Source: a virus
IMG/VR virus record: IMGVR_UViG_3300025168_000034
Coordinates: 32,001-96,000 of that record
Direction: 5' to 3' (one strand)
DNA length: 64,000 nt
In this document: positions 8,035 through 44,114 of the stretch, piece by piece
Position numbering within the stretch: the stretch's first letter is position 1
How the letters are laid out: the number at the start of each line of letters is the position of its first letter
The notes under the pieces: model-generated
Seen by the model: the letters and a program-made list of their open reading frames with translations, nothing else
Database searches by the model: none
Told to the model about the DNA's origin: nothing
Made by a program: the position numbers and the translations under genes

Positions 8035-8040
8035 AACTAC

Positions 8041-8069
8041 AATATACTAAATTAAATCCTATTAAACAA
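8041..8069 (-). promoter_or_regulatory. Class-2 (middle-type) promoter TTGTTT-N17-TATATT
   Basis: Member of a family of 11 sites with T(T/A)G at -35, an exact 17-nt spacer and a TATA(T/G)T -10; 6 nt upstream of the GT2 ATG. Confidence 0.7.
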
Positions 8070-14528: not shown

Positions 14529-14873
14529 TTACCTTTTACCACCATAGTATTCTGTTCCATGGCCTTCTGTTATTAGTTGTTTATTGATTGAATGGTCGTC
14601 AACACGAATGTCTCCTAAGCATCTTCCAAACTTACCGACTCCATGTGATACTAATATAAATTCGTTATCAATATCTTCAAGGAGTTCGATTAATCTAGCC
14701 TTTGCAGCCAATCCTCTTTTCTTTTCTTCTAAGTCTCTGGTACGAGATTCTGGAGCGTTGATACCATGCATTCTTATTCTGACCTTTTTCCAAGTATCAA
14801 ATCCTAAGTCTATCATGGCATCAACTGTGTCACCATCTACAACTCGTAATGTTTTTGCGTTGTATTCGTACAT
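14529..14873 (-). CDS. Thermonuclease (SNase-like) family protein
   Basis: RVVDGDTVD..IDLGF...RIRMHGINAPESRT...GKFGRCLG. Confidence 0.85.
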   Translation of the reverse strand: MYEYNAKTLRVVDGDTVDAMIDLGFDTWKKVRIRMHGINAPESRTRDLEEKKRGLAAKARLIELLEDIDNEFILVSHGVGKFGRCLGDIRVDDHSINKQLITEGHGTEYYGGKR

Positions 14874-16483
14874 TACATCATGTATTGTGGTTTCTTCTCC
14901 TCTTCTTCAGCTTCTGGATTGATACCTACGACACACTCAGTTGTAAGTAATGTTCCTGCTGCTGAAGCAGCTAATTCTAATGCAGTCAATGTTACTTTGG
15001 CTGGATCAATAATACCAGCATCGAACATGTTTACAAACTCATCATTCCTAGCATCATAGCCAGCATCATCGTTAGATGGAATCATCTGACGAATAGCTTC
15101 AGGACTCTTTCCTGCATTTCTAACGATAGCGTTGAATGGTTCAAAGCATGCTTTGCTGACTATGCTATGTCCCATACTTTGATCTGGATGATCAGTTTCA
15201 CATACAAAGTTTTCAGCAGCTTGGGATAATCCAATTCCACCTCCAGCAATGATGCCATCTTCGACTGCAGCTCTTGTAGCACATAAAGCATCATCAACTC
15301 TGTCTGCCTTTTCTTGAAGTTCAATCTCTGTAGCAGCTCCTACATTAATAACAGCTACACCTCCAATAAGCTTGCTCATTCTGCTTTGGTGCATTTGTTT
15401 ATCGAAATCACTTTCTGCACTCTCGTATTGGGATGTGATCTGCTCTACTCTCTCTTCGATAGCTTTCTCGTCACCTCCACCATCTACAATAACAGTCTCG
15501 TTCTGATTAACAGTTACAGTTTTAGCTGTTCCTAACATGTCAGCAGTTAGCTTCTCTAGCTTCATACCCTTCTGTGTTGATATCACTTGACCTCCAGTAA
15601 GAGTAGCGATGTCTTCTAGGTATTGTAATTTTCTGTCTCCAAATCCTGGAGCCTTAACTGCACAAACTTGAAGAATTCCTCTAGCTTTGTTTACGATCAT
15701 GGCTGCCAATGCTTCACCATCTACATCATCTGCGATGATTAATAGTGGTTTGTTTTGTTTGCTACAATTCTCTAGCAAAGCTAAAACCTCTTTTACACTA
15801 CTGATCTTTTTATCACACAATAAGATTAGTGGATCTTTCAATGTACACATCATTGTGTCATTATTTGTAACAAAGTATGGTGAAACATAACCTTTTTCAA
15901 ACTGCATTCCTTCAACTATCTCTAAAGTAGTTTCAGCAGTCTTGCTCTCTTGTACTTGAATGACACCATCCTTACCAACATTATCCATAGCTTCTGCTAT
16001 AATAGTTCCAATTGGTTCATCATTATTAGCTGAGATAGTTGCCACTTGTTTGATCATATCATTCGTAACTACTTCTTTAGCATTTTTACGAATATTCTTA
16101 ATGATCTCCTTTGCAGCTGCTTCCATTCCTCTCTTCAATTCTACTGGATTCATTCCAACCATTACGGCTTTCAATCCTTCATTGTACATGTAGGATGCTA
16201 AGATTGTTGCAGTAGTTGTTCCATCTCCAGCTCTCTTTGCAGCTCTCATTGAAACCTCTTTAATTACTTCTGCTCCAAGGTTTTCGAGTGAGTCTTCTAG
16301 TTTGATTTCCTTTGCTACTGATACTCCATCTTTTGTAATTGAAGGTGGTGCACCTTCTTTCTCGATTATAACATTTCGTCCACATGGACCTAGTGTTGTT
16401 TCAACAGCTTTGGATAACTTGTTGACGCCAGTACGGATTCTCTCTCTTCCGTCTTCTCCGAATTCTAAAACTTTACTTTTCAT
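14873..16483 (-). CDS. groEL: Chaperonin GroEL
   Basis: TLGPCGRNV, ITKDGVSVAKEI, GDGTTTAT, EGMQFEKGY.SPYF, APGFGD. Confidence 0.97.
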   Translation of the reverse strand: MKSKVLEFGEDGRERIRTGVNKLSKAVETTLGPCGRNVIIEKEGAPPSITKDGVSVAKEIKLEDSLENLGAEVIKEVSMRAAKRAGDGTTTATILASYMYNEGLKAVMVGMNPVELKRGMEAAAKEIIKNIRKNAKEVVTNDMIKQVATISANNDEPIGTIIAEAMDNVGKDGVIQVQESKTAETTLEIVEGMQFEKGYVSPYFVTNNDTMMCTLKDPLILLCDKKISSVKEVLALLENCSKQNKPLLIIADDVDGEALAAMIVNKARGILQVCAVKAPGFGDRKLQYLEDIATLTGGQVISTQKGMKLEKLTADMLGTAKTVTVNQNETVIVDGGGDEKAIEERVEQITSQYESAESDFDKQMHQSRMSKLIGGVAVINVGAATEIELQEKADRVDDALCATRAAVEDGIIAGGGIGLSQAAENFVCETDHPDQSMGHSIVSKACFEPFNAIVRNAGKSPEAIRQMIPSNDDAGYDARNDEFVNMFDAGIIDPAKVTLTALELAASAAGTLLTTECVVGINPEAEEEEKKPQYMM

Positions 16484-18552: not shown

Positions 18553-20799
18553 TTACACGTGACCTTCTGCGAAATCTGTTGCTATATTTGGTTCTGCAAT
18601 TAATCCAGTCTCAATTGAAACAGTATTCTCCATACAATCCTTTGTAATCTCACAAGCTTTCTCTGCATGCTCTGCTGATGCGTTTACTACAAATTCATCA
18701 TGTATCTGTAGCATTATATAAGCATCGATGTTATGCTTTTGAAACTCTTCATGAATTCTAATGGCAGATCTGTTCATGATTGAAGCTGCAAGAGATTGGA
18801 TCTGGAAGTTCTTAGCATTGTTAAGGCCGTTCTTATATTCCATTCTCAACTGCTGAAGCTCTTTCTCGTTACCAGCCTTGCGTGCATTCTCTTTCATGCC
18901 TTTGAATACCCACGGCTTGATCAAATTGTCTTCAAATTTCTCATAAATGTACTTGACTTTATCAAGATGTCTAATTCTACCAGTCTTGTTTACAATCTTA
19001 CCTACCGTGTTTGCACGAAGGTGGGTATCATTCATCCACTTTGCTAACTCTGGAAAACCATCTAAGTATCCGTTGATCATTTTCTGAGCTTCTTTGATGT
19101 GGATGTTAAGTTGTTTACCAATCTGCCATGCACCAGCTCCATAAGGAATAGCTAGTGCAATCGACTTAGCTCTCTGTCTAAGGTCAGGTCTGAGTTTCTT
19201 GAGATAGTTATCATCTGATTTGATAGCAGACATACCTTCAAGCTTCCATGCTTGTATTGCTACTCTACTATATAGATCTTCACCATTCTTGAATACGTTG
19301 ATTAGTCCTGGATCATTGCTCACACTTGCAAACACTCTTGGCTCCAAACTACTCTGGTCACATATGACTAAACGTCTATCGTCTTCTGACTTAACAAACT
19401 TACGGACAATGTTATTGTACTTCAATACGAGTGGACTAGCCTCACCAGGTTCTAGGATTCTAGGTAACTGTTGGCTGTCGGAGCTGAATCGTCCACTCGT
19501 AGTTCCATGTTGTTTCACATAGAAGTAGTACCTTCCATCCTCAGATCGTTCTGTGAATCGATCAATGTAGGAAGATTTGATCTTGTTAAGTTTGTTGTAA
19601 TCTTTCATCTTAGCAGCCCACTCATAATCCTTAGATATATGGTCAACCAAGCCTTCGTTGAATTGATTATTACCTTTACGTGTTTTGCTTAACGGCTTTA
19701 TTCTGAGATAGTCAAAGCATAATTCACCAAGTTGTTTCTTACTACTGATGTTAATGAGTCCACCTTCTTTCTCTTTTAAGAGATCCAGACTAACTCTCAT
19801 GCTGTCCATAGGATCCAGATGTTCAGTATCACCATCTGCAAGAAACTGATCAACACCATCTTCATTCTTCATCATGCCTCTATTCTTGTAGTCTAAAAGC
19901 TTCTTAGCAAAGTTACCTCTTTTCTTTGGTGGAAAGGATTCGTGAGCTCTTTCTAAAGCCCATCTCTTAGCTTCTGGTAGTTTCATCAAAGCATCTACAA
20001 CTTCTTTCTCAAGTCTCGTAATGTCTTTTGTAATCTGACTATCCATATCATTGATCAAATCCATATCAAGCATAGATCCTTTCTCTTCCATCTGAATAGT
20101 TACTGTACGATATAGAGGCATCACCTCATCTGTAAAGAAGAAGTCCCATAGGTTTTCCTCTTTTAGTAGTGGCAGATAGTGAGTCATTACACGTAATGTA
20201 AGATCGGTATCAGCTGCAGCGTATTCTCCAATGATCTGCATGTCAGCTTTGTATAATTCGTAGTTAGTCTTGGTAGTCTGACCTCCATTGGCTTTTATAG
20301 ATTCTTTCAATTTGATCTGCTCTTCGTTAGCTTCCTTCTCAGCATCTATACCTAACTCGTTCTGAAGCTCTATTGCAATATCCTTCAAACCAAATGGACC
20401 ATCTTCTTTAAGAGTGTGACGTAGTAGCATAGTATCACAATAAAGTGAATCACGCAAATCTATACCATAGCAGTTTAGAGTATAGCGAACATCAAAAGAT
20501 GCATTATGCATTACTAACTTCTTACCGACAAGCAGCTTGATTAGCTTAACAGCAATATCCTCACACCTCTTACCTTCGATAGTAAGATTATCAATAGTTT
20601 GTGTGTCGTTGTTCCAAATCTTAGTTGGAAAATAGTAACCTTCATTGAGGTTAGCAGAAACAGAGAAACCTATGATATCTCCTTGTCGAGGATTAACACT
20701 GGTTGTCTCAGTATCATATGCAATTATGTTTCCTTGTGTGATGTAGTTGGCTAGCTCTACTACACCAGCTGCATCTGTGATTATTTTGTAACTCTTCAT
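18553..20799 (-). CDS. polA: Family A DNA polymerase with 3'-5' exonuclease and no 5'-3' exonuclease domain
   Basis: ExoI DTETT, ExoII HNASFD, ExoIII YAAAD; TTSGRFSS; motif A DQSSLEPR, motif B RQRAKSIALAIPYG, motif C QIHDEF. Confidence 0.95.
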   Translation of the reverse strand: MKSYKIITDAAGVVELANYITQGNIIAYDTETTSVNPRQGDIIGFSVSANLNEGYYFPTKIWNNDTQTIDNLTIEGKRCEDIAVKLIKLLVGKKLVMHNASFDVRYTLNCYGIDLRDSLYCDTMLLRHTLKEDGPFGLKDIAIELQNELGIDAEKEANEEQIKLKESIKANGGQTTKTNYELYKADMQIIGEYAAADTDLTLRVMTHYLPLLKEENLWDFFFTDEVMPLYRTVTIQMEEKGSMLDMDLINDMDSQITKDITRLEKEVVDALMKLPEAKRWALERAHESFPPKKRGNFAKKLLDYKNRGMMKNEDGVDQFLADGDTEHLDPMDSMRVSLDLLKEKEGGLINISSKKQLGELCFDYLRIKPLSKTRKGNNQFNEGLVDHISKDYEWAAKMKDYNKLNKIKSSYIDRFTERSEDGRYYFYVKQHGTTSGRFSSDSQQLPRILEPGEASPLVLKYNNIVRKFVKSEDDRRLVICDQSSLEPRVFASVSNDPGLINVFKNGEDLYSRVAIQAWKLEGMSAIKSDDNYLKKLRPDLRQRAKSIALAIPYGAGAWQIGKQLNIHIKEAQKMINGYLDGFPELAKWMNDTHLRANTVGKIVNKTGRIRHLDKVKYIYEKFEDNLIKPWVFKGMKENARKAGNEKELQQLRMEYKNGLNNAKNFQIQSLAASIMNRSAIRIHEEFQKHNIDAYIMLQIHDEFVVNASAEHAEKACEITKDCMENTVSIETGLIAEPNIATDFAEGHV

Positions 20800-20805
20800 A
20801 CGCTT

Positions 20806-20834
20806 AATATACGTTTTTTATTTCGATTTTCCTA
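20806..20834 (-). promoter_or_regulatory. Class-2 promoter TAGGAA-N17-TATATT
   Basis: 6 nt upstream of the polA ATG. Confidence 0.65.
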
Positions 20835-20996
20835 ATCATCTTTGTTTTGGTTTGTATATAATTCCACTAAAGTTAGTGCAATGGCTAATAACACCACAGT
20901 CTCAAACCCAAGTTCACTTTTCATAAGGTGAAACCCTGCGAACACCATTAGAATATTTATTACTCTTACTATTATATCTATTATCCTATCACTCAT
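20832..20996 (-). CDS. Small membrane protein (54 aa, two hydrophobic segments)
   Basis: Hand translation MSDRIIDIIVRVINILMVFAGFHLMKSELGFETVVLLAIALTLVELYTNQNKDD. Confidence 0.55.
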   Translation of the reverse strand: MSDRIIDIIVRVINILMVFAGFHLMKSELGFETVVLLAIALTLVELYTNQNKDD

Positions 20997-25361: not shown

Positions 25362-26174
25362 TTAAAGATCTGCTCGCAGCAGTTCTGGGATTCTGCATTG
25401 TAATCCTAAGAAAGCTATATTCTTTTCGATTAAGCTAAAGTCAATATCAGCAGGATTACTCAGATCAAACTCCTCCAAAAAGTTGTGAGGTGTTGGAGTT
25501 CTTGTCTCGTGATCCATACTAAAGTCTTGACCATGTACAGCTGCTAATACTGGATACACTGAATCTGTACTTCTCATCATCGCATGATCATAGTAAGCAA
25601 ACTCAGTTGGATCTCCTTGGCCTAGACAATGAATAGGCTTCTTGAGTAAATCTTTCTTTTTGAGATAATCGTAACACGCATGACGTGCCTCTTTGATTCC
25701 TTGATCATCTTCAAAATCATCAAGCCATGCATTAGGTACTGCTATTTTTGATAAGCCAATTACCTTAACCCAATTCTTATCTATACCCCACTGATAAGCT
25801 TCAATCCAATCCTCTTTAGTTTGTCCTTGAGGACAGAAGAAGATATCGATATTGTCAGATAATCCTTCTGCATCCATTCTTGCTTTGAAGTTTGTTGCAT
25901 TAGCAATTGTAGCTTGTTTGTCAAACAACACATCAGGTGCAATCACTTCATTTGGCATAAGCACTTTGCAGATACCAATCAACACATCTTCAGTAACTAA
26001 TGCTCTTTCAGCTGCGCTATTGTCAAGTGTTATAAATTTACCTTGCTCTTTTTGTTCGAGAATAAACTTTCTGTATTCTGGAAACTGTACCCATAAGTGT
26101 GCAAGAGCAAATATTCTATCTCCGAGCTTCATTGGCTCGAGGTTGCTTACAGGTGATATTACGTAATAATCCAT
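25362..26174 (-). CDS. dpdA: TGT-like TIM-barrel 7-deazaguanine transglycosylase (DpdA-like, probably the divergent DpdA3 type)
   Basis: TGT-fold motifs LDNSAAE, APDVL, PQG, IHCLG, RSTDS; starts 1 nt after the folE stop. Confidence 0.7.
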   Translation of the reverse strand: MDYYVISPVSNLEPMKLGDRIFALAHLWVQFPEYRKFILEQKEQGKFITLDNSAAERALVTEDVLIGICKVLMPNEVIAPDVLFDKQATIANATNFKARMDAEGLSDNIDIFFCPQGQTKEDWIEAYQWGIDKNWVKVIGLSKIAVPNAWLDDFEDDQGIKEARHACYDYLKKKDLLKKPIHCLGQGDPTEFAYYDHAMMRSTDSVYPVLAAVHGQDFSMDHETRTPTPHNFLEEFDLSNPADIDFSLIEKNIAFLGLQCRIPELLRADL

Positions 26175-26175
26175 A

Positions 26176-26817
26176 TTATGTTCTACTTTGATCTATTAAT
26201 TGAAAAAATTCTTGTCTTGTTCCTATCTCATTTGTCCAGAAGTATCCAGACATTTGTGATGTCTTCATTACTGAGTCTTGTTTGATACCTCTACACTTCA
26301 CACAGTTGTGTTGTGATTCAACTACCACAGCTACACCTCTGTTTCCTACACATAACTTATCAACGTGATCGTGAATTTGCTTTGTTAAGCTTTCTTGTAT
26401 GTTTGGTCTACGAGAATAAAAATCTACAATACGATTAAGCTTACTCAAACCAACTACTAGATCCTCCTTCTCTTTACCTGGTATGTAAGCTACATGAGCT
26501 ACTCCTGAGAAAGTTAAGTTATGGTGTGCACACATACTCATTACTGGAATACGTGTTTGGCATATTAATCCGGTGTAGCCTTCGTCGTTAGGGAATGCAG
26601 TTACTTCAGGTGCTGGATTGATGGATCCTGCAATAAGATCATTAACCCATGCTTTCGCTACACGGTGAGGTGTACGATCGCTATGAGGATCAGCTTTCCA
26701 ATCAAAACCTAACGCTTCTAAAAATCCACCATAATACTCAGCAGCCTTTTTTATCATCTGCTCCTTCTCTTCGTTTGTACGAGGAAGATTCCCGTTCGCT
26801 TTTTTAATTAATTTCAT
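26176..26817 (-). CDS. folE: GTP cyclohydrolase I
   Basis: TPHRVAK, SMCAHH, GLSKLNRIV..YSRRP.IQE.LT, HNCVKCRG. Confidence 0.95.
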   Translation of the reverse strand: MKLIKKANGNLPRTNEEKEQMIKKAAEYYGGFLEALGFDWKADPHSDRTPHRVAKAWVNDLIAGSINPAPEVTAFPNDEGYTGLICQTRIPVMSMCAHHNLTFSGVAHVAYIPGKEKEDLVVGLSKLNRIVDFYSRRPNIQESLTKQIHDHVDKLCVGNRGVAVVVESQHNCVKCRGIKQDSVMKTSQMSGYFWTNEIGTRQEFFQLIDQSRT

Positions 26818-26820
26818 ATA

Positions 26821-27297
26821 TTAATTGTTGTTTATAATTTCTAATCGTTCTTCAAATATACTAAAAATCTTTTGACATTCCAACTCTATTGGTTTATTAT
26901 CTGCAACCTCAAAAGATTCAGTATCTTTGATATCGTCACGACGTTCATAACGCACTTTTCGTATGTGTTCGGATGTGTTTAACCATATTAGATGAGAGTC
27001 GGGATACCACTCAAGAATTTTATCTACGATTGTAGATTGTCTTATCCCATCTACAATAATAGGTCTTCTCTTAATGATACCTTTCTCCACACAAGTTGTT
27101 ATAGCATCTAACACTCCAACAACCTCTTCCGCAATACGCTCATCTAAATGTAGTGAGTTTTGTAACTTTGTTCGATCCTCACTTTTTATCAAATCCTTAA
27201 CAATGTTAGATACCGATATTCTGTAAGATGTTGATGCTTGAAACGAACTCTTCCCACTACATATACGTCCAAATAATAATATAACTTCTGCTTTCAT
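26821..27297 (-). CDS. P-loop nucleoside monophosphate kinase-like protein
   Basis: VILLFGRICSGKS (Walker A), IIVDGIRQ, lid-like RKVRYERR, terminal IINN. Start reassigned to 27297 (ATGA overlap with the upstream stop). Confidence 0.75.
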   Translation of the reverse strand: MKAEVILLFGRICSGKSSFQASTSYRISVSNIVKDLIKSEDRTKLQNSLHLDERIAEEVVGVLDAITTCVEKGIIKRRPIIVDGIRQSTIVDKILEWYPDSHLIWLNTSEHIRKVRYERRDDIKDTESFEVADNKPIELECQKIFSIFEERLEIINNN

Positions 27298-27635
27298 ATC
27301 TCTACAATTCCAAAAAATTCTCCATCCTCTGACACAGTGCATCGACAAAGACCAAAATAGTTTAACAAATCCTCCGCTATCATCTCACAGCTCATTCCTC
27401 CAAAGTTGCAACATCCATATGCTCCATCGTACCAAGTCTTAGCAATATATTTTTTAAGCTTATGTTTAAAATCTATAAACTCAATGTCTCTATCACCATG
27501 TGACACTTCTGCTCTACAACTTATCTGGAATGTGTGTCTGTGTAAATGTTTTAAATACTCAACATTTGGTAGTGGACAATCTTTCCACTGATGCAATCCT
27601 TCTACATCAACTCTTACCTCTATATATTTTTTCAT
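27294..27635 (-). CDS. dpdL: QueD-paralog T-fold protein, putative 7-carboxy-7-deazaguanine decarboxylase (DpdL-like)
   Basis: EGLHQW, LKHLHRHTF (LxxxHRHxF), DRDIEF, SCEMIAE, VSEDGE; a canonical queD is present separately. Confidence 0.7.
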   Translation of the reverse strand: MKKYIEVRVDVEGLHQWKDCPLPNVEYLKHLHRHTFQISCRAEVSHGDRDIEFIDFKHKLKKYIAKTWYDGAYGCCNFGGMSCEMIAEDLLNYFGLCRCTVSEDGEFFGIVEI

Positions 27636-27641
27636 AATTCT

Positions 27642-27670
27642 AATATACGGCTTTTATTGCAAAGATACAA
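27642..27670 (-). promoter_or_regulatory. Class-2 promoter TTGTAT-N17-TATATT heading the dpdL-kinase-folE-dpdA operon
   Basis: 6 nt upstream of the ATG at 27635. Confidence 0.72.
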
Positions 27671-27675
27671 CTTTA

Positions 27676-27879
27676 TTAGTCTTCAATTAATTCTGGTTCT
27701 TCTTCGCTCTCTAAACACTTATCTCTTGCTAGATCCCAATCGAAGTCAAACTCCCCCTCGTAATATGCTTCTAAAAAGCTTTCTTTATCTTTCTTGTAGT
27801 GAGCTAACTGTTCTTCAGTCAACTCCACCTCTTCCCATCTGTAGTCCGTATATGTGACTAGCTTTCGTAACTTTGCCAT
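27676..27879 (-). CDS. Small acidic hypothetical protein
   Basis: Start reassigned to MAKLRK at 27879, 1 nt after the dUTPase-like stop. Confidence 0.6.
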   Translation of the reverse strand: MAKLRKLVTYTDYRWEEVELTEEQLAHYKKDKESFLEAYYEGEFDFDWDLARDKCLESEEEPELIED

Positions 27880-27880
27880 A

Positions 27881-28363
27881 CTACTTTTTGTCTTTGTCTT
27901 TTTGCCATTGACCATCGTACAACTCTGCTTCTGCATTCTCCATCATAATGATCTGAGCTACTCTAGCACCTTTTTCTAAAACAATAGTTTCAGTAGCTAT
28001 AAGCATACCACCCATCTCATCTACCTCAAATCCTGGATCGTAAACTCCTGATGTGATAACACCTCCTGATCTTAGAACAGAGGACCTATGCCTAATAAAA
28101 GCTGTGTGTTTGTCATCCAACTTACATCCTTGTTCAAAGGTGAGTGAATAGGTACCTGGTTCTAGTTGATATAGAAACTTACCATCATCATTAATGAATG
28201 GTGTAACTTCATCGTAATCAAATACAGTGGTTTTATCTTTCATAACCATACCACCATTTACTTTATTTATTGACTTTAAGGTTAAGTCATAACCAACTTG
28301 CGCTTTCTTTCCTTTGTCTTTTGTATCAAGCAAGGAAGCGACTCCATCTGCATTTAGTAACAT
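27881..28363 (-). CDS. Trimeric dUTPase/dCTP-deaminase-fold protein
   Basis: GYDLTL, RSS, VYDPGF, GARVAQ, YDGQWQ; the TLE glutamate of dCTP deaminases is not evident. Confidence 0.8.
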   Translation of the reverse strand: MLLNADGVASLLDTKDKGKKAQVGYDLTLKSINKVNGGMVMKDKTTVFDYDEVTPFINDDGKFLYQLEPGTYSLTFEQGCKLDDKHTAFIRHRSSVLRSGGVITSGVYDPGFEVDEMGGMLIATETIVLEKGARVAQIIMMENAEAELYDGQWQKDKDKK

Positions 28364-28372
28364 ATTTGTATC

Positions 28373-28531
28373 TTATTTGTTTTGTGTATTAATACTTCTT
28401 TTTAAAACTGCAGCAATTAATAACATTGCTCCTCCTATTACCAACGCATGCATAAGAGTTGGTGATCCTTCATACTGACAACACTGCTCTCCGCATGCTC
28501 CCATAGTGTGTTTAATTAAATCTGTGTTCAT
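28373..28531 (-). CDS. Small Cys-containing membrane protein (52 aa)
   Basis: Hand translation MNTDLIKHTMGACGEQCCQYEGSPTLMHALVIGGAMLLIAAVLKRSINTQNK; lies behind a class-2 promoter. Confidence 0.55.
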   Translation of the reverse strand: MNTDLIKHTMGACGEQCCQYEGSPTLMHALVIGGAMLLIAAVLKRSINTQNK

Positions 28532-28553
28532 ATTATTTGGTTTTATTTGTATT

Positions 28554-28582
28554 AATATACGGTTTATTATTCTATTTTCCTA
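28554..28582 (-). promoter_or_regulatory. Class-2 promoter TAGGAA-N17-TATATT
   Basis: Matches the family consensus. Confidence 0.65.
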
Positions 28583-28706
28583 ATTCTTTTATCTTTTCTT
28601 TAAGCTCATCAATCATTGCTTGAACCTCATCAGGCTCCATTGTAATAGCACAGCATGTGCCAACGTGTTCTGATATCTCTTCTAGTAACTCTAAAGCTTC
28701 TTCCAT
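28572..28706 (-). CDS. Small hypothetical protein (44 aa)
   Basis: MEEALELLEEISEHVGTCCAITMEPDEVQAMIDELKEKIKELGK; TGATG overlap with the queE stop. Confidence 0.55.
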   Translation of the reverse strand: MEEALELLEEISEHVGTCCAITMEPDEVQAMIDELKEKIKELGK

Positions 28707-29563
28707 CACACTCCTCGTTCTGTATCGAATGCTATGATGTGATCTCTACCAGTCATATTGTATCCCTCTCTTTCGCACATTCTGAATACTTTGGGATACA
28801 TTTCGATTAGTGTTACTCTCGTATCTCCGGCTGGCATCATATATGTCTTGTCTTTTGGAATATTCATCTCAACTCTGAAAGCTTCGATCTCCTCTAAGTT
28901 TTTATCTGTACCGTCCCATACTGGTTTGAAGTGATAGTCTGTGTGATAGTCTAAAGTCTTACGCATTGCGTCGTAATTCATTCTCAACTTGTTGTGTTGT
29001 TTTATCATACGCTCATCCGTTTCTTTACCAGATGGCGTCTTAGCGCCCAAAACGGGAACACTATTACTAAACTTAGGGCTAAGACTAATAAGCCCAATAG
29101 GATGATCAGTTGGTAAAAAGTGACTACCTTCAGTTTCAATAGTGATAAGAATACCTCTTTCATTTGCAAAGTGTGTTAATTCGTTTACTAGAGCTGGATG
29201 CATTGTTGGTGATCCTCCAGTTAACATCATTTCTTTTACGTGAGGATTGTCGTCATAAATTTTAATAATGTCGTTGAAGTTGAATGTACCTTTCTCTGGA
29301 TGAATACTTGTGTACCAAGAATCACACCATCCACCCTCACCAAAGTAACATCTGTGAGTACATCCAGTTGTTCTTACTGCAATAGTAGGTCTTCCGAATC
29401 TACTACCTTCAGACTGAACACATCTGTAAACTTCCACTATAGGTAGTACTTTATCGTAATTCTCAATACGTTTTAGTTGCTTTTCTTTTGTTGCTTGATA
29501 AGGTTTGTTCCTATCAAAATCGTAGTAATGCTTTGAGTGTTTTCTTGTGTCTTGCATGCTCAT
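28706..29563 (-). CDS. queE: 7-carboxy-7-deazaguanine synthase (radical SAM)
   Basis: EVY..VQSEG...GRPTIAVRT.GCTHRC...WCDSWY, LTGGSP, IETEG, SLSPK, R.HI..F...RGV. Confidence 0.9.
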   Translation of the reverse strand: MSMQDTRKHSKHYYDFDRNKPYQATKEKQLKRIENYDKVLPIVEVYRCVQSEGSRFGRPTIAVRTTGCTHRCYFGEGGWCDSWYTSIHPEKGTFNFNDIIKIYDDNPHVKEMMLTGGSPTMHPALVNELTHFANERGILITIETEGSHFLPTDHPIGLISLSPKFSNSVPVLGAKTPSGKETDERMIKQHNKLRMNYDAMRKTLDYHTDYHFKPVWDGTDKNLEEIEAFRVEMNIPKDKTYMMPAGDTRVTLIEMYPKVFRMCEREGYNMTGRDHIIAFDTERGV

Positions 29564-29566
29564 AAA

Positions 29567-29812
29567 TTAAAATGGTAAGTCATCAACCTTTGGTTCTGGT
29601 CTCTTTGGTGTATCTGGCTTTGGTGCAGGAGGGTTAAAATAGCTGTCTAAGAATTGTTTTGGATACATTAGTATCTTTCCTTCGTATGTAGGATTCTGTA
29701 TTTCTTTGCTTTCAATGCGTACACCTTGCTTAAACGCTTCTTCTGCAACTTTCTTACCTAGCTCTGCTCCTGCAGCTCTGTTTAAGTAATCGTATAATGA
29801 TAACATCTCCAT
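29567..29812 (-). CDS. Hypothetical protein
   Basis: SLYDYL..AAG.ELG..V...Y.GKI.MYP; acidic DDLPF tail. Confidence 0.7.
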   Translation of the reverse strand: MEMLSLYDYLNRAAGAELGKKVAEEAFKQGVRIESKEIQNPTYEGKILMYPKQFLDSYFNPPAPKPDTPKRPEPKVDDLPF

Positions 29813-29878
29813 AACTAATCTTTTATGTATTCGTATACAAAATCTATATCACCAAACGTGGTTGTGTATGTCCAATAA

Positions 29879-30346
29879 CTATCCTTCATAGATTGCTGTA
29901 TTTTTCTTGTTCTCAAAAAATTCCACTCTTGCGATACTCACTCTGCCTTCTGTCTCTTCTTGTACAAACGCGTTTAGCTTTTTGTATATAAACTCAGCAA
30001 ATCTCTCAGCGCCTACTGGACCATCCATTTCTCTTAATTGGATGATACCCTCATCATCTGCTTCTTGAAAATGAGTTAAGTATGGATCATCTTTTGCAAT
30101 TACAACTGTATGATCAAACATATAATCCATCCACTCTTTAGGAGACATTCCATCAATCTTAGTATTGGATCTTTTCATTCCTCCAAAGTCCCATACCCAA
30201 TTACGATGATCAAGATCACCCTCGAAGGTTACTTTAAACTCTATTGCATATCCATGTAAGAATCTGCAGTGTGTTGTTGTTGCTTGGTATTGACGAAATA
30301 CTGTACTGAATCCGTCAAAGATTTTTGTTGATTGAAATTTAGGCAT
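29879..30346 (-). CDS. queD: 6-carboxy-5,6,7,8-tetrahydropterin synthase
   Basis: CRFLHGY, WVWDFG, FDH, GAERFAEFIY, E..KNTA.Y. Confidence 0.9.
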   Translation of the reverse strand: MPKFQSTKIFDGFSTVFRQYQATTTHCRFLHGYAIEFKVTFEGDLDHRNWVWDFGGMKRSNTKIDGMSPKEWMDYMFDHTVVIAKDDPYLTHFQEADDEGIIQLREMDGPVGAERFAEFIYKKLNAFVQEETEGRVSIARVEFFENKKNTAIYEG

Positions 30347-30978: not shown

Positions 30979-30983
30979 ACCTA

Positions 30984-31012
30984 AATATACGGAATATTTA
31001 TTAGTAATCCAA
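30984..31012 (-). promoter_or_regulatory. Class-2 promoter TTGGAT-N17-TATATT
   Basis: Heads the queD-queE transcript; 5 nt upstream of the ATG. Confidence 0.7.
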
Positions 31013-31016
31013 CTTA

Positions 31017-37552: not shown

Positions 37553-38923
37553 TTAGTCGATTAATTTGTTTAATTCTTCAAATTTATTTGCCAAAGCATT
37601 TCTGATTACTGTATCGTCATTGTTCATAACTTTTTTAGTAGCCTGTCCTAGTATTGTGTTCTCTTCATATATCTCAATACCACACACTGCCATGTTCATC
37701 TTACTTGGGAAAGTCAACCCATCGGGTCCAAACCGATTCTTTATTATATGCCATCTTCCAGTTCCACTAATCTTATCAGCAGTCTTTCTTGATAATGATA
37801 CAATAAAGTCAGCTACCATTACTTTAGTGTATGATTCAGCAATCTTATCTGCTTCTATCACTTCCATCTCAGCTGCACTTCTATTTGCTTGAGATGCTGT
37901 CCATAATGGTATCTTATGTAATCCAGCTAGCCCTCTCAACTCTTCATAGATACCTCCAAGTACCTGATCGTGTCTAGCGTTCTTATTCGATCCTGCGTCT
38001 CTTAGTAGATCGGCATAATCCAGGAACACTATATCTGGAACAGCTCCTTGTATTGCACACTTATCTAGGTGTGCTGCTATAGTATTTACAGTTGCAGTCT
38101 TAGTTGGATAGTATTTGATTATCAACTTACCCTTCAACTTTTCCATAGCAATCTCAACTTCTTCTTTATGATACTTCAAATCAGAAGTTGGGATGCCAGT
38201 GTAATAGCTGTCAAACCTTCCACCCACATAAGTGTCAGAAAGCTCTAATGTATAATACACAACATTCATTCCTTGCTTTGCACAATGCGCAGCTGCATTT
38301 ACTAAAGCCATTGATTTACCAATACCTGCAGGTGCTACAAATACTCCCATCTCACCTGGACCTAATCCACCATCGGTTATGTCATTAATGACTTCCCATG
38401 GAGTTGGTACAGTCTTTCTGCTATTCGCACTGAACCTTTCTTCTATGTGATCAATATACTCATGACCAATGTCTTTATCTGATCCAGCTTTCATAGCCTC
38501 ATCTACTGTGCTTTTAATTGCATCATACTTGCCTTGTTGAAGAAGTTGAACAGACTCTAGTATTGCAGCTTTTAGTTTCTGATTCTTACAAAAGTCGATT
38601 GTCTTGTCTTTTATGTAATCTGAATCTAAAGCATCTATATGTTTCATGACATCTTTTAGATTATCAATTACAGTAGTCTTTAGAACATCTTGTTCGATAC
38701 TATCAATCTCAACTTTCATCACCTCTAATGTCGGTGTTGTTTTGTATTCGTTAAAATACTTTGCAATAGTCTTTGCAATCCATTGTGATGATTCTGAAGA
38801 GAAGTATGTTGGATCAAGTATGTCGTGTATCTGTTGTAGGTATATTCGATCCTTAATTAGGACCGCTAACAGCTTACTTTGAAAACCAGCTCCGTATAAT
38901 TGAAAAGTATCTTGTGTTCCCAT
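37553..38923 (-). CDS. Replicative DnaB-like (SF4) helicase
   Basis: APAGIGKS, YYTLEL, LDYADLL, WTASQANR, KNRFGPDG. Confidence 0.92.
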   Translation of the reverse strand: MGTQDTFQLYGAGFQSKLLAVLIKDRIYLQQIHDILDPTYFSSESSQWIAKTIAKYFNEYKTTPTLEVMKVEIDSIEQDVLKTTVIDNLKDVMKHIDALDSDYIKDKTIDFCKNQKLKAAILESVQLLQQGKYDAIKSTVDEAMKAGSDKDIGHEYIDHIEERFSANSRKTVPTPWEVINDITDGGLGPGEMGVFVAPAGIGKSMALVNAAAHCAKQGMNVVYYTLELSDTYVGGRFDSYYTGIPTSDLKYHKEEVEIAMEKLKGKLIIKYYPTKTATVNTIAAHLDKCAIQGAVPDIVFLDYADLLRDAGSNKNARHDQVLGGIYEELRGLAGLHKIPLWTASQANRSAAEMEVIEADKIAESYTKVMVADFIVSLSRKTADKISGTGRWHIIKNRFGPDGLTFPSKMNMAVCGIEIYEENTILGQATKKVMNNDDTVIRNALANKFEELNKLID

Positions 38924-38930
38924 GTGGATG

Positions 38931-38959
38931 AATATACGGTTTATTAATGTAACTTACAA
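38931..38959 (-). promoter_or_regulatory. Class-2 promoter TTGTAA-N17-TATATT
   Basis: 7 nt upstream of the helicase ATG. Confidence 0.7.
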
Positions 38960-39997
38960 CAAGTTTGTGTATTGATTTATTTTGGTGGTAACATCTCGTA
39001 ACCACATTTCTGGATTACGTATAGCGTTTGTCATTCCATCTTCGATTAGTAGTCTGTGAAATGTCATCTTTGCTAAGCTACGTCCTTCAGCATCCATAGT
39101 ATCATGTATGCGAAGTTGTGTAGTTGCGTTTAGTAGTGTTTCACCTAGCTGCATTATCTCATGATACAACTCTATATCTTTAACATTATTCTCCACAATG
39201 TTGTAGGCTTTAATTTTAGAGTCTTGCACCAGATCTTTATTGTAGCTGAAGAATTCTTTGAGATTGATTACTTCTTGTTCGGCCATCCGTGGCCATCTCT
39301 TCAATATTGTCTTTAGCTTTAGGCCGGGAGCTCCTGGAATATTATCCGAGGAGTCCCCTTCCAAAGCTCGATACACTGCGAAGTTTTGAGGAATGACTCC
39401 ATACTCACTATACACATCATCTTCATAATACAATTTCTTTTTCGTTGGGCTCCATACGTGTACGTTATTGGATACCAGTTGTAAGAAATCCTTATCGGAT
39501 GACATAATAAATGAGTGGGAGTCTTTCGGTGTAAGTATGTTATTTGCGATGTAAGCAATTACATCATCAGCTTCTGCTCCATCTAAAGTTATTACGGTGA
39601 TCGGTAAAGTCTCAAGATAGTCAATCAATCTAATTAATTGTTCTAGTTGATTATCTTCCTTGTCTACGGATTGTGCTCTGTTGAGCCTAATGCTGACTTT
39701 ACGTGTTGCTTTATATTCTGGATACAGCTTTCTTCTAGCAGCTGATCCATTTTTACCATCAAACACGACAATGACCCGAGTAGGGCTCATCGTCTTGATA
39801 GCGTGACCCATACTAGATAAGAATCCTGAGATCCCACCGCAATGCTCACCATTAGCGTTTAGGGTGGGTGTTGCTGAGTAAGCTCGTATAAATGTGTTTA
39901 ATCCGTCTATGATTAATACTCGGTCGTCTCTATGTTTAGATTCTTCTGTCTCACGCAACTTTAATTGATTGAGCAATTTAGCATACTTATTTTTCAT
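38954..39997 (-). CDS. 5'-3' exonuclease / flap endonuclease
   Basis: LIIDGLN, VFDG, YPEYKATR, EADDVIA, SSDKDFLQL, GDSSDNIPG. Confidence 0.93.
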   Translation of the reverse strand: MKNKYAKLLNQLKLRETEESKHRDDRVLIIDGLNTFIRAYSATPTLNANGEHCGGISGFLSSMGHAIKTMSPTRVIVVFDGKNGSAARRKLYPEYKATRKVSIRLNRAQSVDKEDNQLEQLIRLIDYLETLPITVITLDGAEADDVIAYIANNILTPKDSHSFIMSSDKDFLQLVSNNVHVWSPTKKKLYYEDDVYSEYGVIPQNFAVYRALEGDSSDNIPGAPGLKLKTILKRWPRMAEQEVINLKEFFSYNKDLVQDSKIKAYNIVENNVKDIELYHEIMQLGETLLNATTQLRIHDTMDAEGRSLAKMTFHRLLIEDGMTNAIRNPEMWLRDVTTKINQYTNLL

Positions 39998-41154
39998 TCC
40001 TCGTCTTGGTTTAGTGGTGTATCAATTCCTTCCATATTAGAGGTGTCAATTGTCAACTCATCCGGATCAATTTCCGTCTGTGTTTTGTAATGCGATATAC
40101 TATTCTGTTCAATAGCATTTTTGCAATACGCTCTAACCTCTGGTCTCTTGAGTATGTCTCTCCACTCTTTACTTTGGAATTTAACAACCTCTCCAGTATC
40201 CTCCATTATGAGGGTGTACCAAGATCCTCCCACTGTTATAACTTTATACTTCTTGAGTGTGTCTAACCAACTAGCGTCATCATCTATTCCAGAATCAAAG
40301 TATATACTAAACTTCGCTTTCTTAAAAGGAGGTCCATATCTATTCTTTACGACTGTGGCTTGTGTGTTTACGCCAATTATATCTCCATCACTATCCTTGA
40401 TCTTACCAACAGCTTGAAGTCTCACTCTACAGCTTGCATGGAATGGCAAAGCCTTTCCTCCACTTGTAGTGTATTTGTCTCCAAACATAGCGCCTAACTT
40501 TTCTCTCAACTGATTTGTAAACGCTAAGATTACTTTCTCTTTTCCAATAAGATTGGTTATCTTTCTTAACGCTTTCGACATAATAATAGCTTTGGATGTA
40601 GCCCATCCATCTTTATCATAGTCAGCATCTTGCTCTATCTTCGTGGTAGCTGCTGCTACTGAATCTACAACAATTGTAACAAGTCTGTCTTTACTAGTCT
40701 TACGAATATCAAGTATAAGATTCTCTATTGCTTCAAAGATGTCTTCAATTGTATCCATTGGTAGGTAAAGCATGTTCTTGACATCAACACCAATTGCAGT
40801 AAGAAACTCTTCACTTAGTGCATTCTCAGTATCAATGTAAACTGCTATACCACCTTTCTTCTGAGTATTAGCTAATAGGTGAGCTGCGATCAGAGATTTA
40901 CCGGACGCTTCAAGCCCGGTAAATTCTGCGATTCTTCCTACTGGTAATCCTCCGTTAGGTCGATTTGATATGGCAAGGTCTAGATCTGTTGATCCGGTTG
41001 ACACCCAATCCGAAAGATCGGTTTGTGTTTTCTCTTCTCCTAGGAAGTGAACAGCTTTGAAGTCTTTAAACTTCTTATTTAGACTTGATGCCAACTCTTG
41101 AGCTAGCTCGTCCCTTCCCGCTATTTCATCGGGTGTAACTTTTGCTTTTGCCAT
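39994..41154 (-). CDS. recA: RecA/UvsX-like recombinase
   Basis: STGS..LD, GGLPVGRI, GLEASGKS, YIDTENA, VVDSVAA, NQLR, SGGKALPF, KNR. Confidence 0.93.
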   Translation of the reverse strand: MAKAKVTPDEIAGRDELAQELASSLNKKFKDFKAVHFLGEEKTQTDLSDWVSTGSTDLDLAISNRPNGGLPVGRIAEFTGLEASGKSLIAAHLLANTQKKGGIAVYIDTENALSEEFLTAIGVDVKNMLYLPMDTIEDIFEAIENLILDIRKTSKDRLVTIVVDSVAAATTKIEQDADYDKDGWATSKAIIMSKALRKITNLIGKEKVILAFTNQLREKLGAMFGDKYTTSGGKALPFHASCRVRLQAVGKIKDSDGDIIGVNTQATVVKNRYGPPFKKAKFSIYFDSGIDDDASWLDTLKKYKVITVGGSWYTLIMEDTGEVVKFQSKEWRDILKRPEVRAYCKNAIEQNSISHYKTQTEIDPDELTIDTSNMEGIDTPLNQDEE

Positions 41155-41159
41155 AACTG

Positions 41160-41924
41160 TTATGAATTAAATAAATCTCCGAATGCTGTTGAGATGTCTT
41201 CTGTTGTGTTTGCCGTCTTAGCTCCAGTAATTGGTGCCTTCGTAGTAGTAGCTTCGCCACCTTCACCAGGCTTCAACCAATCCTCTAATGCAACTTTCAT
41301 ATCGTCATACGATAGCTCAGTAAACATCTTTGTTAATTCTGGTTGCTTGTTAACAATCATTTCTGCAACATTCTTATCTTCTGTTGCTGGTGTTGTGTTA
41401 GGCTTAACTCTAACATTGTAAGATGGATAGCCACCCTCCTTGTCTGGAGCGATGTGTTCGATTGTTACGTCACGACCGTTTGTTAAGTCAGTGATATCTC
41501 CATAATCTGGATCTGTGATTACTCCTAATAACTCAGAGTATATCTTCTTACCAAAAGCATAGAACTTAACTCCTTCAGATTCTTGTCCTCTAACAATTAC
41601 GGGAGTGTAACATCTGAACTTTGGTTCCATCTTTCTTCCCATCTTCCAATCTTCTTTGTCTCCAGTGCTTTTAAGCTTCTCTGCAAATTCAAGTACAGGA
41701 TCAGGTCTTCCAAATGAGCTCGGAGAGATCATTGTTTTCTTTCCTATATCGTAATGAAAATAAAGTTCTTGAAAAGGGTTTGATTTGTCGAACGAATAAG
41801 GTACTATTCTTACTTGTGATTTTCCGACTGGTGGTTTCCAGAATACATCTGAGTTTCTGCTTCCACCGCTTGTTGTTTGAAGCTCTTGCAGCTTCGCTTT
41901 AATTGCATCTAAATCTAGTGCCAT
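41160..41924 (-). CDS. Single-stranded DNA-binding protein (gp32-like)
   Basis: FWKP..G...VRIVP, PF..LYFHY, FGKKIY, DYGDITD...GRD, acidic C-terminus ending FGDLFNS; next to recA. Confidence 0.8.
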   Translation of the reverse strand: MALDLDAIKAKLQELQTTSGGSRNSDVFWKPPVGKSQVRIVPYSFDKSNPFQELYFHYDIGKKTMISPSSFGRPDPVLEFAEKLKSTGDKEDWKMGRKMEPKFRCYTPVIVRGQESEGVKFYAFGKKIYSELLGVITDPDYGDITDLTNGRDVTIEHIAPDKEGGYPSYNVRVKPNTTPATEDKNVAEMIVNKQPELTKMFTELSYDDMKVALEDWLKPGEGGEATTTKAPITGAKTANTTEDISTAFGDLFNS

Positions 41925-42100: not shown

Positions 42101-42475
42101 TCATTGTAAATGTTTTATTTCTACACTCCTAAAAGATCCATCTCGATTAGTAAGTAGTAGGCGATTAGTAAATTGGGTCCAATCAACACGATATGTTTTA
42201 TCTAACACACCATTGTTTTGCTCGCGTATTAATGCATTAAGGGCATTAATGCTATACAATGTTTCTGTATCTTTTTTGCGATTGATTGTAATTGTGTCTG
42301 ACATTCTGCTTTGCGTATTGAATGTATTGTATATGCAAACAACTGAAGAGTCTTCAGTATATTGATAGCATCTCATGTTTGAAACATTTTCAACTTGATA
42401 AGTTTTGTGAATGCGTGTAATGCAAGAGGGTAGCTCCGACACGGTCGTAAAGGTGCAAAGTAACTGAGATCTCAT
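42101..42475 (-). CDS. Conserved-looking hypothetical phage protein
   Basis: QLLCTFT...TITINRKKDTETLYSINALN..I...NNGVLD. Confidence 0.7.
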   Translation of the reverse strand: MRSQLLCTFTTVSELPSCITRIHKTYQVENVSNMRCYQYTEDSSVVCIYNTFNTQSRMSDTITINRKKDTETLYSINALNALIREQNNGVLDKTYRVDWTQFTNRLLLTNRDGSFRSVEIKHLQ

Positions 42476-42753: not shown

Positions 42754-44079
42754 CTAAGTTGTGCAAAAATCTAAATTTGCGTAATTATTTCCTTGCTTTA
42801 CTTTGATAGGAAATTTATACAAATCTATTGATGCTGGTATGATTTTATTCATTAATAAATTCTTATGACGGTTGTGTACATCAAATAATACACTATCATA
42901 TGTGTAGAGTATTGGTTTACCTTTGATTCCAGATTGTACAAAATGCTCAGCCATTGTACTTAACATCTCTACATTATATTCAGTCTCCATCATCTGAATG
43001 TAGTAGTTGAAAAAGGTGTAAGGAGTAACATCTTTGTAGTTTTCCCAATACATCACTCTGTGTGATATCGGACTCTCTACACGATAGTTTTCTCTCTTTT
43101 CCCACAGATCCTTTACAAAGGCATCTGTTTTTGCAAAGAATGGTATATGTAAATAATCCTTACGTATTCCTCCATACAGTTGTCTGAATGTATCTTCTTT
43201 AGCTTTAGATATTTGATCTTGTGTAGGATTGTCTGTGTTGTGATAGTGCTTAGCTAAATGCTCGTAAACATTGTCTTCACCAAAATCGTAATCAATTAGT
43301 GTTGCAATAATTCTAGGATGGTATGAGTTAAAATCTAATTCTACTAAACACCCATCATCACCATACCTACTAACAAAGCATTCACGTGTCTCATCTTTAG
43401 GCAATGCTGCATAGTTTACTCCTCCAAAGCGATTACTAGGTCTTCCGGTAGTTGTGTAGTAGTTGTATTGCGTGTAGCATTTGTCACCAACTCGGCTAAA
43501 GGTTTTTCCAAATCGTTCTTTATACCTTTCCTTATCTACACGTAATCCACTCGACTCAATCCAATTAAACACTCCTCGAAGTTTGTTTGCATAAAAATCA
43601 TAACCGCTAGGAACATTAATATCTATGAATTGATTACATATACGATCTACTCGCTCTTGTAGTTTGAGTAATGATATAAGTGAGTTTGTTTTCTTACATC
43701 CTGACATGCTACGATTATATCGTGTAACCATCACACCTGATTCTTTTTCTAGCTTTTGTCTAGTTCTAAGATAGTGTATCATATCAAGGTCCATGAATGT
43801 TGGTTCTGATCCTAATTGAAACTCATAATTTTTAAAAAGATGAATATCTGTACAGAATAGTAGGTTAGAAAACTTACTCAACAAGGATAGTGACATATTA
43901 TAAACAGCCTCTGGATGATCTACTCCTACAATATAGGATGGACCTAAGTGGCCTTCTTTAATTGCTAATGCAATAATCTTATTCTGTGTAGAATGTACTC
44001 GATCGTCTTCTGGGATTGGCACTATGAATAGTGCTTTGTCTTGCAATTCTAGTAACTGCTGTTCGCTATCTATAACCAT
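42754..44079 (-). CDS. Short atypical family A polymerase-like protein (degenerate exonuclease domain)
   Basis: TTTGRPSN, motif A ELDFNSYHPRI, motif B KAKEDTFRQLYGG, motif C YTYDSVLFD, terminal GNNY. Confidence 0.8.
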   Translation of the reverse strand: MVIDSEQQLLELQDKALFIVPIPEDDRVHSTQNKIIALAIKEGHLGPSYIVGVDHPEAVYNMSLSLLSKFSNLLFCTDIHLFKNYEFQLGSEPTFMDLDMIHYLRTRQKLEKESGVMVTRYNRSMSGCKKTNSLISLLKLQERVDRICNQFIDINVPSGYDFYANKLRGVFNWIESSGLRVDKERYKERFGKTFSRVGDKCYTQYNYYTTTGRPSNRFGGVNYAALPKDETRECFVSRYGDDGCLVELDFNSYHPRIIATLIDYDFGEDNVYEHLAKHYHNTDNPTQDQISKAKEDTFRQLYGGIRKDYLHIPFFAKTDAFVKDLWEKRENYRVESPISHRVMYWENYKDVTPYTFFNYYIQMMETEYNVEMLSTMAEHFVQSGIKGKPILYTYDSVLFDVHNRHKNLLMNKIIPASIDLYKFPIKVKQGNNYANLDFCTT

Positions 44080-44085
44080 AATGTA

Positions 44086-44114
44086 ACTATACGCTTTTTT
44101 TATCTAGGAGGCAA
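44086..44114 (-). promoter_or_regulatory. Class-2 promoter TTGCCT-N17-TATAGT
   Basis: 6 nt upstream of the ATG at 44079. Confidence 0.7.

Follow-up and report, generated by a model that had tools for sequence, protein, structure and literature searches.

Why should a large phage that already encodes a regular, full-length DNA polymerase of family A carry a second, much smaller enzyme of the same kind? The question is raised by a gene in the IMG/VR virus record IMGVR_UViG_3300025168_000034. We analyzed a stretch of 64,000 nucleotides of this record (hereafter the window), which comprises bases 32001–96000 of its 165,609 bp (completeness 98%) and carries all of its long open reading frames (ORFs) on the minus strand. 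An earlier note on this DNA, made by a model from the letters and an ORF list, had pointed to a 441-aa PolA-like protein at window positions 42754–44079, and the ORF list and its translation confirmed such a protein on the minus strand. Its gene is a compact family-A (Pol I-type) polymerase homologue, as judged by sequence profile and fold. It is also a member of the published family divPolA1, which was named by Yutin, Tolstoy, Mutz, Wolf, Krupovic and Koonin (2024, Virol J 21:200, PMC11348598) with gene 1 from the Flavobacterium phage vB_FspM_immuto (hereafter immuto) as its prototype.

Searches with the divPolA1 protein alone revealed little of this relationship. Nothing was found in Pfam at an E-value of 0.01, a PHROG search aligned just 31 residues with a DNA polymerase family, and the best phmmer match in the PDB had an E-value of only 0.78. 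The single sequence is too divergent for Pfam, and the Klenow fragment was reached only with a profile built from relatives. The family profile, built from 111 diverse relatives at ~30% identity, matched Klenow with an E-value of 8.7e-12 and with every motif in register. When the family was compared by hhalign with the single sequence of the full PolA of the same phage, motif A alone was aligned, at low probability. As in Pol I-type enzymes, a Klenow-like fold is combined with the Asp residues of motifs A and C and the Lys and Tyr of motif B; the steric-gate Glu (E710) and the O-helix Arg (R754) of such enzymes are both replaced in divPolA1. The gene and the parts of its protein are located in the window as follows.

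42754..44079, minus strand: divPolA1 gene, 441 aa (ORF, homology to immuto gene 1, AlphaFold2 model, VIA matches)
43543..44079, minus strand: N-terminal degenerate 3'-5' exonuclease-fold domain, residues 1 to ~179 (structural matches)
43486..43533, minus strand: thumb remnant, residues 183–198 (profile-to-Klenow alignment)
43426..43455, minus strand: primer-terminus motif TTTGRPSNRF, residues 209–218 (aligns with Klenow TATGRLSS)
43312..43335, minus strand: motif A DFNSYHPR, residues 249–256, with catalytic D249 and His254 at the steric gate (Klenow profile; DQSSLEPR in the phage's own full PolA)
43168..43212, minus strand: motif B / O helix ISKAKEDTFRQLYGG, residues 290–304, with Ile at the Arg754 position and K294, F298 and Y302 kept (Klenow profile)
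42880..42900, minus strand: motif C YDSVLFD, residues 394–400, with catalytic D395, Tyr for His881 and Ser for Glu883 (Klenow profile)

In the profile alignment, D249, H254, I290, K294, F298, Y302, Q362 and D400 of divPolA1 correspond to Klenow D705, E710, R754, K758, F762, Y766, Q849 and E887, respectively. Y394-D395-S396 corresponds to H881-D882-E883, and the TGRPS sequence corresponds to Klenow TGRLS, which places R213 at R668. The earlier note had read motif A as DFNSYHPR with its sugar-gate Glu changed to His, motif C as YDS, the motif B Arg as lost and both catalytic Asp residues as retained, and each of these readings held in the alignment. It had also suggested that conservation of the His and of the motif C Asp-Ser be checked. 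D249, D395, K294, R213, E365 and D400 were kept in all of the 111 relatives, H254, Y302 and Q362 in 110 and F298 in 104. At position 290, the equivalent of Arg754, 69 relatives had Tyr, 20 had Ile and only 4 had Arg, and at position 396, the equivalent of Glu883, 89 had Ser and 20 had Ala. By this comparison of sequences, three canonical Pol I residues are replaced family-wide (Glu710 by His, Arg754 by Ile or Tyr and Glu883 by Ser or Ala), and a nucleotide pocket rewired in this way implies altered substrate handling of some kind. Given that the Asp pair, Lys and Tyr of the O helix, and Arg and Gln at the primer terminus were kept in 110–111 of the 111 relatives at ~30% identity, the active site appears to be under selection, and the enzyme is probably active as a DNA polymerase.

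An AlphaFold2 model of divPolA1 built with 41 relatives had a mean pLDDT of 89.3 and a pTM of 0.87. Its top PDB matches by Foldseek were Klenow (E 3e-19, TM 0.73 by query), Pol theta, Bst, apicoplast Pol and Pol nu. By VIA, 385–421 residues were aligned at Z 21–23 with M. smegmatis Pol1, Pol nu, a Taq variant, Klenow, DpoZ, T7 DNA polymerase and Pol theta, and the alignments to PolA DNA polymerases covered model residues 1 to ~438. Klenow itself (Z 21.7, 421 residues) shares with divPolA1 the exonuclease, palm and fingers fold and has motifs A, B and C, TGR and Q849 in register. It differs in its length (605 aa versus 441 aa), in having ~88 thumb residues that are deleted in divPolA1, in its exonuclease domain, which is shrunken and without the DxE motif in divPolA1, and in the residues at positions Glu710 (His in divPolA1), Arg754 (Ile/Tyr), His881 (Tyr) and Glu883 (Ser).

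The thumb had been described in the earlier note as very short. D182 corresponds to Klenow D548 and Y205 to Y659, and the 16 residues 183–198 stand in place of Klenow 549–652 (~104 residues), so that the thumb is essentially deleted. According to Minnick et al. (1996), as cited in PMC10061031, deletion of the Klenow thumb lowered DNA binding, processivity and fidelity and left an enzyme that was still active. Model residues 1–179 matched stand-alone exonucleases, with Z 8.1 for ExnV1 and Z 6.4–7.5 for RNase D and Nibbler EXO, which identifies the N-terminal domain as a shrunken exonuclease fold. As the earlier note had stated, exonuclease acidic motifs are not evident; no DxE motif was found in residues 1–179, and a profile of the N-terminal domain alone matched no exonuclease in the PDB by sequence. 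From its sequence and model, the domain is predicted to be inactive as an exonuclease. Despite the loss of DxE, H29, H55, Asp/Glu57 and D97 (residues 1–97, window 43789–44079) were 93–99% conserved in the 111 relatives, and these residues may constitute a different site or a structural contact to the palm.

[quoted passage not shown] Its members were described as having kept the palm residues, with a truncated thumb, an inactive exonuclease and replication genes downstream (PMC11348598). In a tblastn search of phage genomes, the gene studied here matched immuto gene 1 (annotated as ‘DNA polymerase family A’) with 28% identity, an E-value of 7e-40 and 98% coverage, and it also matched an uncultured 484-kb phage (LR756508) and Microcystis phage Mel-JY01. 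The product of the gene studied here retains the palm Asp residues, has a truncated thumb and lacks the DxE motif. A regular DNA polymerase is encoded besides, in a large phage genome (165,609 bp, within a range of 155–190 kb), and genes for gp32, UvsX, FEN, DnaB and a ribonucleotide reductase (RNR) lie downstream on the same strand. Immuto likewise encodes a second, full PolA. With the same full-length homology, a ~165-kb genome with a regular polymerase, downstream replication genes, palm Asp residues, a short thumb and an inactive exonuclease in the prototype, nothing essential differs between the two.

Among candidates from a set of 5.8 billion proteins, we found 4536 relatives at an E-value of 0.001 or less, nearly all of which were 425–460 aa long. 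We also obtained 916 clusters at 50% identity, and proteins of ~440 aa dominated both of these searches; at least 589 IMG/VR stretches encode a relative. A literature search found divPolA1 named only in the 2024 study and its preprint, and none of the 19 clusters in a reclassification of PolA (PMC10201439) matched it. The text of PMC11348598 makes no mention of the steric gate, of ribonucleotides or, for divPolA1, of a primase. New relative to that text are the family-wide steric-gate His, the loss of Arg754, a shared promoter motif, a conserved 124-aa neighbor and the size of the family. divPolA1 is thus abundant and is carried by large aquatic phages beside a normal replicative polymerase. 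It offers a natural experiment on how much a Pol I-type enzyme can lose, here its thumb, proofreading, steric-gate Glu and O-helix Arg, and yet be kept by selection. The activity of divPolA1 would reveal the division of labor between two polymerases in large phages, and the family might be a source of a very small polymerase whose substrate tolerance is unusual.

The regular polymerase of this phage was found in the same window.

18553..20799, minus strand: regular full-length PolA with exonuclease and polymerase domains, 748 aa (PF00476 9e-60, PF01612 5e-14)

Its motifs are canonical (DQSSLEPR, RQRAK...YG and HDE) and its DTE exonuclease motif is intact; the contrast that the earlier note had drawn between two PolA enzymes in one genome was therefore correct. 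This full PolA has Leu at the Phe762 position (RQRAKSIALAIPYG). Leu at this position is a variant known from surveys of PolA in marine virioplankton. It is also discussed in the PolA reclassification paper (PMC10201439). A search of the 165.6-kb genome with PF00929 and PF01612 found no DEDD exonuclease besides the exonuclease domain of the full PolA. GroEL is encoded at 14873–16483, just downstream of the full PolA, and a chaperonin near the regular polymerase was noted for divPolA1 phages by Yutin et al. (PMC11348598).

The surroundings of divPolA1 itself are those of a replication locus. In the order of transcription, tail sheath and baseplate genes and ORFs of 669 and 252 aa are followed by divPolA1, ORFs of 95 and 124 aa and a gp32-type SSB, and then by a UvsX/RecA recombinase, a Pol I-type FEN, a DnaB-like helicase and a class II RNR. 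The neighbors with assigned coordinates are listed below.

42101..42475, minus strand: 124-aa protein (‘small124’) between divPolA1 and gp32 (tblastn in relatives; AlphaFold2 pLDDT 93.4)
41160..41924, minus strand: gp32-type single-stranded DNA-binding protein (PF08804 7e-13, phrog_1192 1e-24)
39994..41154, minus strand: UvsX/RecA recombinase (PF00154 1e-60, phrog_97 3e-69)
38954..39997, minus strand: Pol I-type 5'-3' exonuclease, FEN (PF02739 1.5e-35)
37553..38923, minus strand: DnaB-like replicative helicase, preceded by a promoter-motif copy of its own (phrog_19 2e-80, PF03796)

In contrast to E. coli Pol I, the 5' nuclease is here a separate gene, three ORFs downstream of the polymerase. 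The downstream gene order was also found in immuto, in Mel-JY01 and in 80 IMG/VR loci, which are the kept subset of the scan that yielded the at least 589 stretches. The one-strand order in these 80 loci was the 669-aa ORF, the 252-aa ORF, divPolA1, the 124-aa protein, gp32, UvsX, FEN, DnaB and RNR, with variable inserts flanking the 124-aa gene on either side.

According to the earlier note, divPolA1 has its own promoter. The sequence TTGCCT-N17-TATAGT is present at 44114–44086, within a promoter-like element of the form TTGCCT-N17-(C)GTATAGT (44080–44114) that ends 7 nt before the divPolA1 ATG. TTGCCT-N17-TATAGT alone is at chance level, as 15 consensus promoter matches were found in the region versus 13.7 expected, and it was the comparison between loci that supported the claim. 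TTG-N18-21-TAT(A/T)NT with its end 3–14 nt before the start codon was found for divPolA1 in 40 of 73 distinct loci and for DnaB in 17 of 39, versus 0–2% of loci for gp32, UvsX, FEN, the 124-aa gene and the two upstream ORFs and 7.4% for all ORF starts. In this genome, (A/C)CGTATA(T/G)T-N5-8-ATG precedes divPolA1, DnaB, a DnaG primase, the full PolA, the head of a deazaguanine operon and three small ORFs. The full form of the motif is TTG-N17/18-(A/C)CGTATA(T/G)T-N5-8-ATG, in which the end of the -10 box lies 5–8 nt before the start codon.

Window 44080-44114, 38924-38960, 20800-20840, 27636-27672, 30979-31015 and 8035-8070, minus strand: promoter-like motif sites, the first being the element ahead of divPolA1 (motif scan)
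G000:C1 near 122532 and 156718, outside the window: promoter-like motif sites (motif scan)

With the -10 box so close to the start codon, transcripts would be nearly leaderless. Since the motif is conserved before divPolA1 and other replication genes, divPolA1 is predicted to head a near-leaderless unit that is co-regulated with them, including the regular polymerase. This conserved unit comprises divPolA1, the 124-aa protein, gp32, UvsX and FEN. The shared motif looks like a replication-gene (early or middle) promoter class of the phage, and such a conserved, putatively near-leaderless promoter-like motif ahead of divPolA1, the helicase, the primase and the full PolA is new here.

What, then, would the second enzyme do beside the first? 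With moderate confidence, we consider divPolA1 to be a DNA polymerase that is active, depends on a primer, does not proofread, has low processivity and synthesizes short patches at the fork, the bulk of the genome being copied by the regular polymerase. The compact enzyme, composed of a shrunken, inactive 3'-5' exonuclease-fold domain, a palm and fingers with the thumb deleted, would synthesize short stretches of DNA at the replication fork without proofreading, and the proofreading PolA would take the rest. One such job could be gap filling after primer removal together with the neighboring Pol I-type FEN, in which case the divPolA1 and FEN genes would jointly take the place of bacterial Pol I. 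Another could be the extension of D-loops made by UvsX and gp32. Having neither thumb nor proofreading, in a genome where the sole detected DEDD exonuclease is in the full PolA, divPolA1 is unlikely to be the bulk replicase for 165 kb, and we take it for an accessory enzyme. A role in replication is supported by the promoter motif in common with DnaB, the DnaG primase and the full PolA, and by the Pol I-type FEN in the divPolA1 transcription unit. The suggestion of the earlier note that this is a specialized second family-A enzyme is likewise supported, given the intact catalytic Asp residues, the lack of proofreading, the near absence of a thumb and the odd residues fixed family-wide.

Several points weigh against this assignment. 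Arg754 and Glu883 are important for catalysis in Klenow, and their family-wide loss, as read from the alignment, could mean a different chemistry or substrate. The near-invariant H29, H55 and D97 seem unaccounted for if the exonuclease domain that carries them is ‘dead’. The synteny is inherited within one large phage clade and is thus weak, non-independent evidence for a functional link of divPolA1 to FEN, UvsX and gp32. In addition, the regular polymerase is swapped among families A, B and C in these phages with divPolA1 remaining constant (PMC11348598), a pattern that would fit just as well with divPolA1 being the core enzyme.

Ribonucleotide use or primer synthesis had been proposed in the earlier note. 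Such a sugar-relaxed or priming enzyme would incorporate ribonucleoside triphosphates or start de novo and serve as a synthase of RNA or mixed primers, perhaps like CcPol-MP of SCCmec, and we regard it as unlikely. The fixed His254 at the Glu710 position (110 of 111 relatives) is in its favor, as is the Ser or Ala at the Glu883 position, which recalls T7 RNA polymerase, where motif C is HDS. However, His, being bulky, may continue to serve as a gate, and alone it says nothing on the choice of sugar. F298 is the Phe762 of DNA polymerases (104/111) and not the Tyr of RNA polymerases, which in T7 RNA polymerase is Y639, at the sugar-sensing position of the O helix. The primer-terminus residues are retained as well, with the Arg668 equivalent (R213) invariant and the Gln (Q362) present in 110 of 111. 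T7-type RNA polymerases share with divPolA1 a right-hand, PolA-type palm and fingers and the Ser after the motif C Asp, but the VIA Z-values were 11.4 for the yeast mitochondrial, 9.6 for the T7, 8.7 for the human mitochondrial and 7.5 for the N4 enzyme over ~265–270 residues, versus 21–23 for DNA polymerases. divPolA1 also differs from them in lacking an N-terminal promoter-binding domain, the O-helix Arg and the overall architecture of an RNA polymerase.

CcPol of staphylococcal SCCmec is a PolA-type enzyme whose primase-polymerase activity was demonstrated by experiment; its exonuclease domain is partial and its thumb short, and it has a small OB-fold partner (MP) and a helicase close by (Bebel et al. 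2020, PMC7581432; Rice 2023, PMC10061031). Its architecture and gene order resemble those of the divPolA1 locus, where a small PolA-type enzyme with a partial exonuclease and a short thumb is followed by a small protein and later by a helicase. However, CcPol keeps Glu710 as well as Phe762 and uses deoxynucleoside triphosphates (dNTPs), whereas divPolA1 has His at the gate; priming therefore needs no changed gate. MP adopts an OB fold, whereas the small protein conserved next to divPolA1 (42101–42475) is ferredoxin-like in its N-terminal half. No small OB-fold partner was found beside divPolA1, the gp32-type SSB being a separate, ordinary phage SSB.

In contrast to the CcPol-MP system, divPolA1 phages also encode a DnaG-type primase. 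The earlier note had seen no primase and had advised a check of the genome for DnaG or AEP. The statement is true of the replication block but not of the genome, where a DnaG-type primase of 307 aa is encoded outside the window at G000:C1:121608-122531 (phrog_47 E 3e-38, a CHC2 zinc finger and a weak Toprim). Members of this primase family were also found in all four of the other complete or near-complete divPolA1 genomes searched, namely immuto, Mel-JY01, LR756508 (484 kb) and a contig of 137 kb. divPolA1 is therefore not needed as a primase, and the argument from a missing primase fails. With the PolA DNA-polymerase fold, F298, the invariant R213 and the DnaG-type primase, the proposal of ribonucleotide use or primer synthesis found no support. 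The region from G000:C1:120195 to 123428 contains, along with the DnaG-type primase, an SbcD/SbcC-like nuclease (fused or adjacent), a resolvase of the T7 endonuclease I type and a gene that resembles S-adenosylmethionine decarboxylase.

That divPolA1 is the true core replicase of its clade, to which an interchangeable regular polymerase of family A, B or C would be accessory, is in our judgment decidedly unlikely. The gene stands in a conserved replication module, with the regular polymerase varying and lying among chaperonin and nucleotide-modification genes (PMC11348598). In this genome as well, GroEL (14873–16483) and the deazaguanine genes (25362–30346) are near the full PolA, and the promoter motif of divPolA1 is common to the helicase and the primase. 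However, the full PolA has the same promoter type and intact exonuclease and polymerase motifs, whereas divPolA1 has neither a proofreading site nor a thumb, and no stand-alone DEDD exonuclease was detected for proofreading in trans. By error thresholds, genomes of 160–480 kb are difficult to replicate without editing. We would give as little credence to a combined reading, in which divPolA1 would be the invariant core polymerase of a very large clade of aquatic myoviruses with interchangeable regular polymerases and, at the same time, a PolA that, as marked by its family-wide gate His and its lack of both the gamma-phosphate Arg and the thumb, is no longer a plain dNTP-dependent primer extender but, for example, makes ribonucleotide or mixed patches, starts de novo with a partner or uses an unusual nucleotide.

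The handling of modified nucleotides had also been considered in the earlier note. By analogy with DpoZ in 2-aminoadenine phages, divPolA1 might be specialized for copying or building 7-deazaguanine DNA, which appears improbable to us. The window carries a 7-deazaguanine module at 25362–30346 on the minus strand, composed of QueD (phrog_2389), QueE (phrog_2076), a dCTP-deaminase/dUTPase-like gene, FolE (phrog_2197) and a 270-aa phrog_20335 protein with no Pfam match, and no QueC was seen within the window. All G in immuto DNA is replaced by a 7-deazaguanine derivative. Furthermore, the equivalents of Arg754 and Arg755 are both changed in divPolA1, and in Taq structures these O-helix residues are near N7 of the incoming purine. 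On the other hand, the modification genes adjoin the regular PolA and not divPolA1 in this genome, QueE is absent from the complete genomes of Mel-JY01 (190 kb) and LR756508 (484 kb), Cellulophaga phage phiST and Campylobacter phage CP220, both of which are fully G-replaced, yielded no divPolA1 relative, and DpdA is considered to insert 7-deazaguanines post-replicatively. With QueE lacking in two complete divPolA1 genomes, such a function is not general, and an obligatory link between divPolA1 and 7-deazaguanine DNA was rejected. Finally, a catalytically dead scaffold that serves as a DNA-binding replisome component without polymerization would fit the loss of Arg754, Glu883, the thumb and the steric-gate Glu, but it is very improbable, as 110–111 of 111 relatives retain the metal-binding Asp pair, Lys and Tyr in the O helix, and Arg and Gln at the primer terminus.

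The 124-aa protein downstream of divPolA1 was found by tblastn on the same strand in 79 of 83 divPolA1 loci. It matched no Pfam or PHROG family, and 31 of its members matched no Pfam family either; its pattern is QLLCTF...HRKK.TNTLY.INALN...NNGVLDK...W. The N-terminal half of its model is ferredoxin-like, with generic ferredoxin/ACT/RRM-like matches at Z of 7.0 or less and no OB-fold protein among the matches listed, and the fold is unlike that of the helical UvsY. A predicted complex of divPolA1 with the 124-aa protein scored 0.01 versus a mark of 0.32, which speaks neither for nor against a contact between the two.

Among the divPolA1 relatives, a single fused form was found (P0171, 935 aa, from a 5996-bp Logan contig). 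No Pfam family matched its extra N-terminal 508 residues. This N-terminal part contains the sequences FDIVAAQPSL and FTVHDSIYV, which resemble motifs A and C of PolA, the latter with an HDS triplet, and it may be a second, still more reduced polymerase-like domain.

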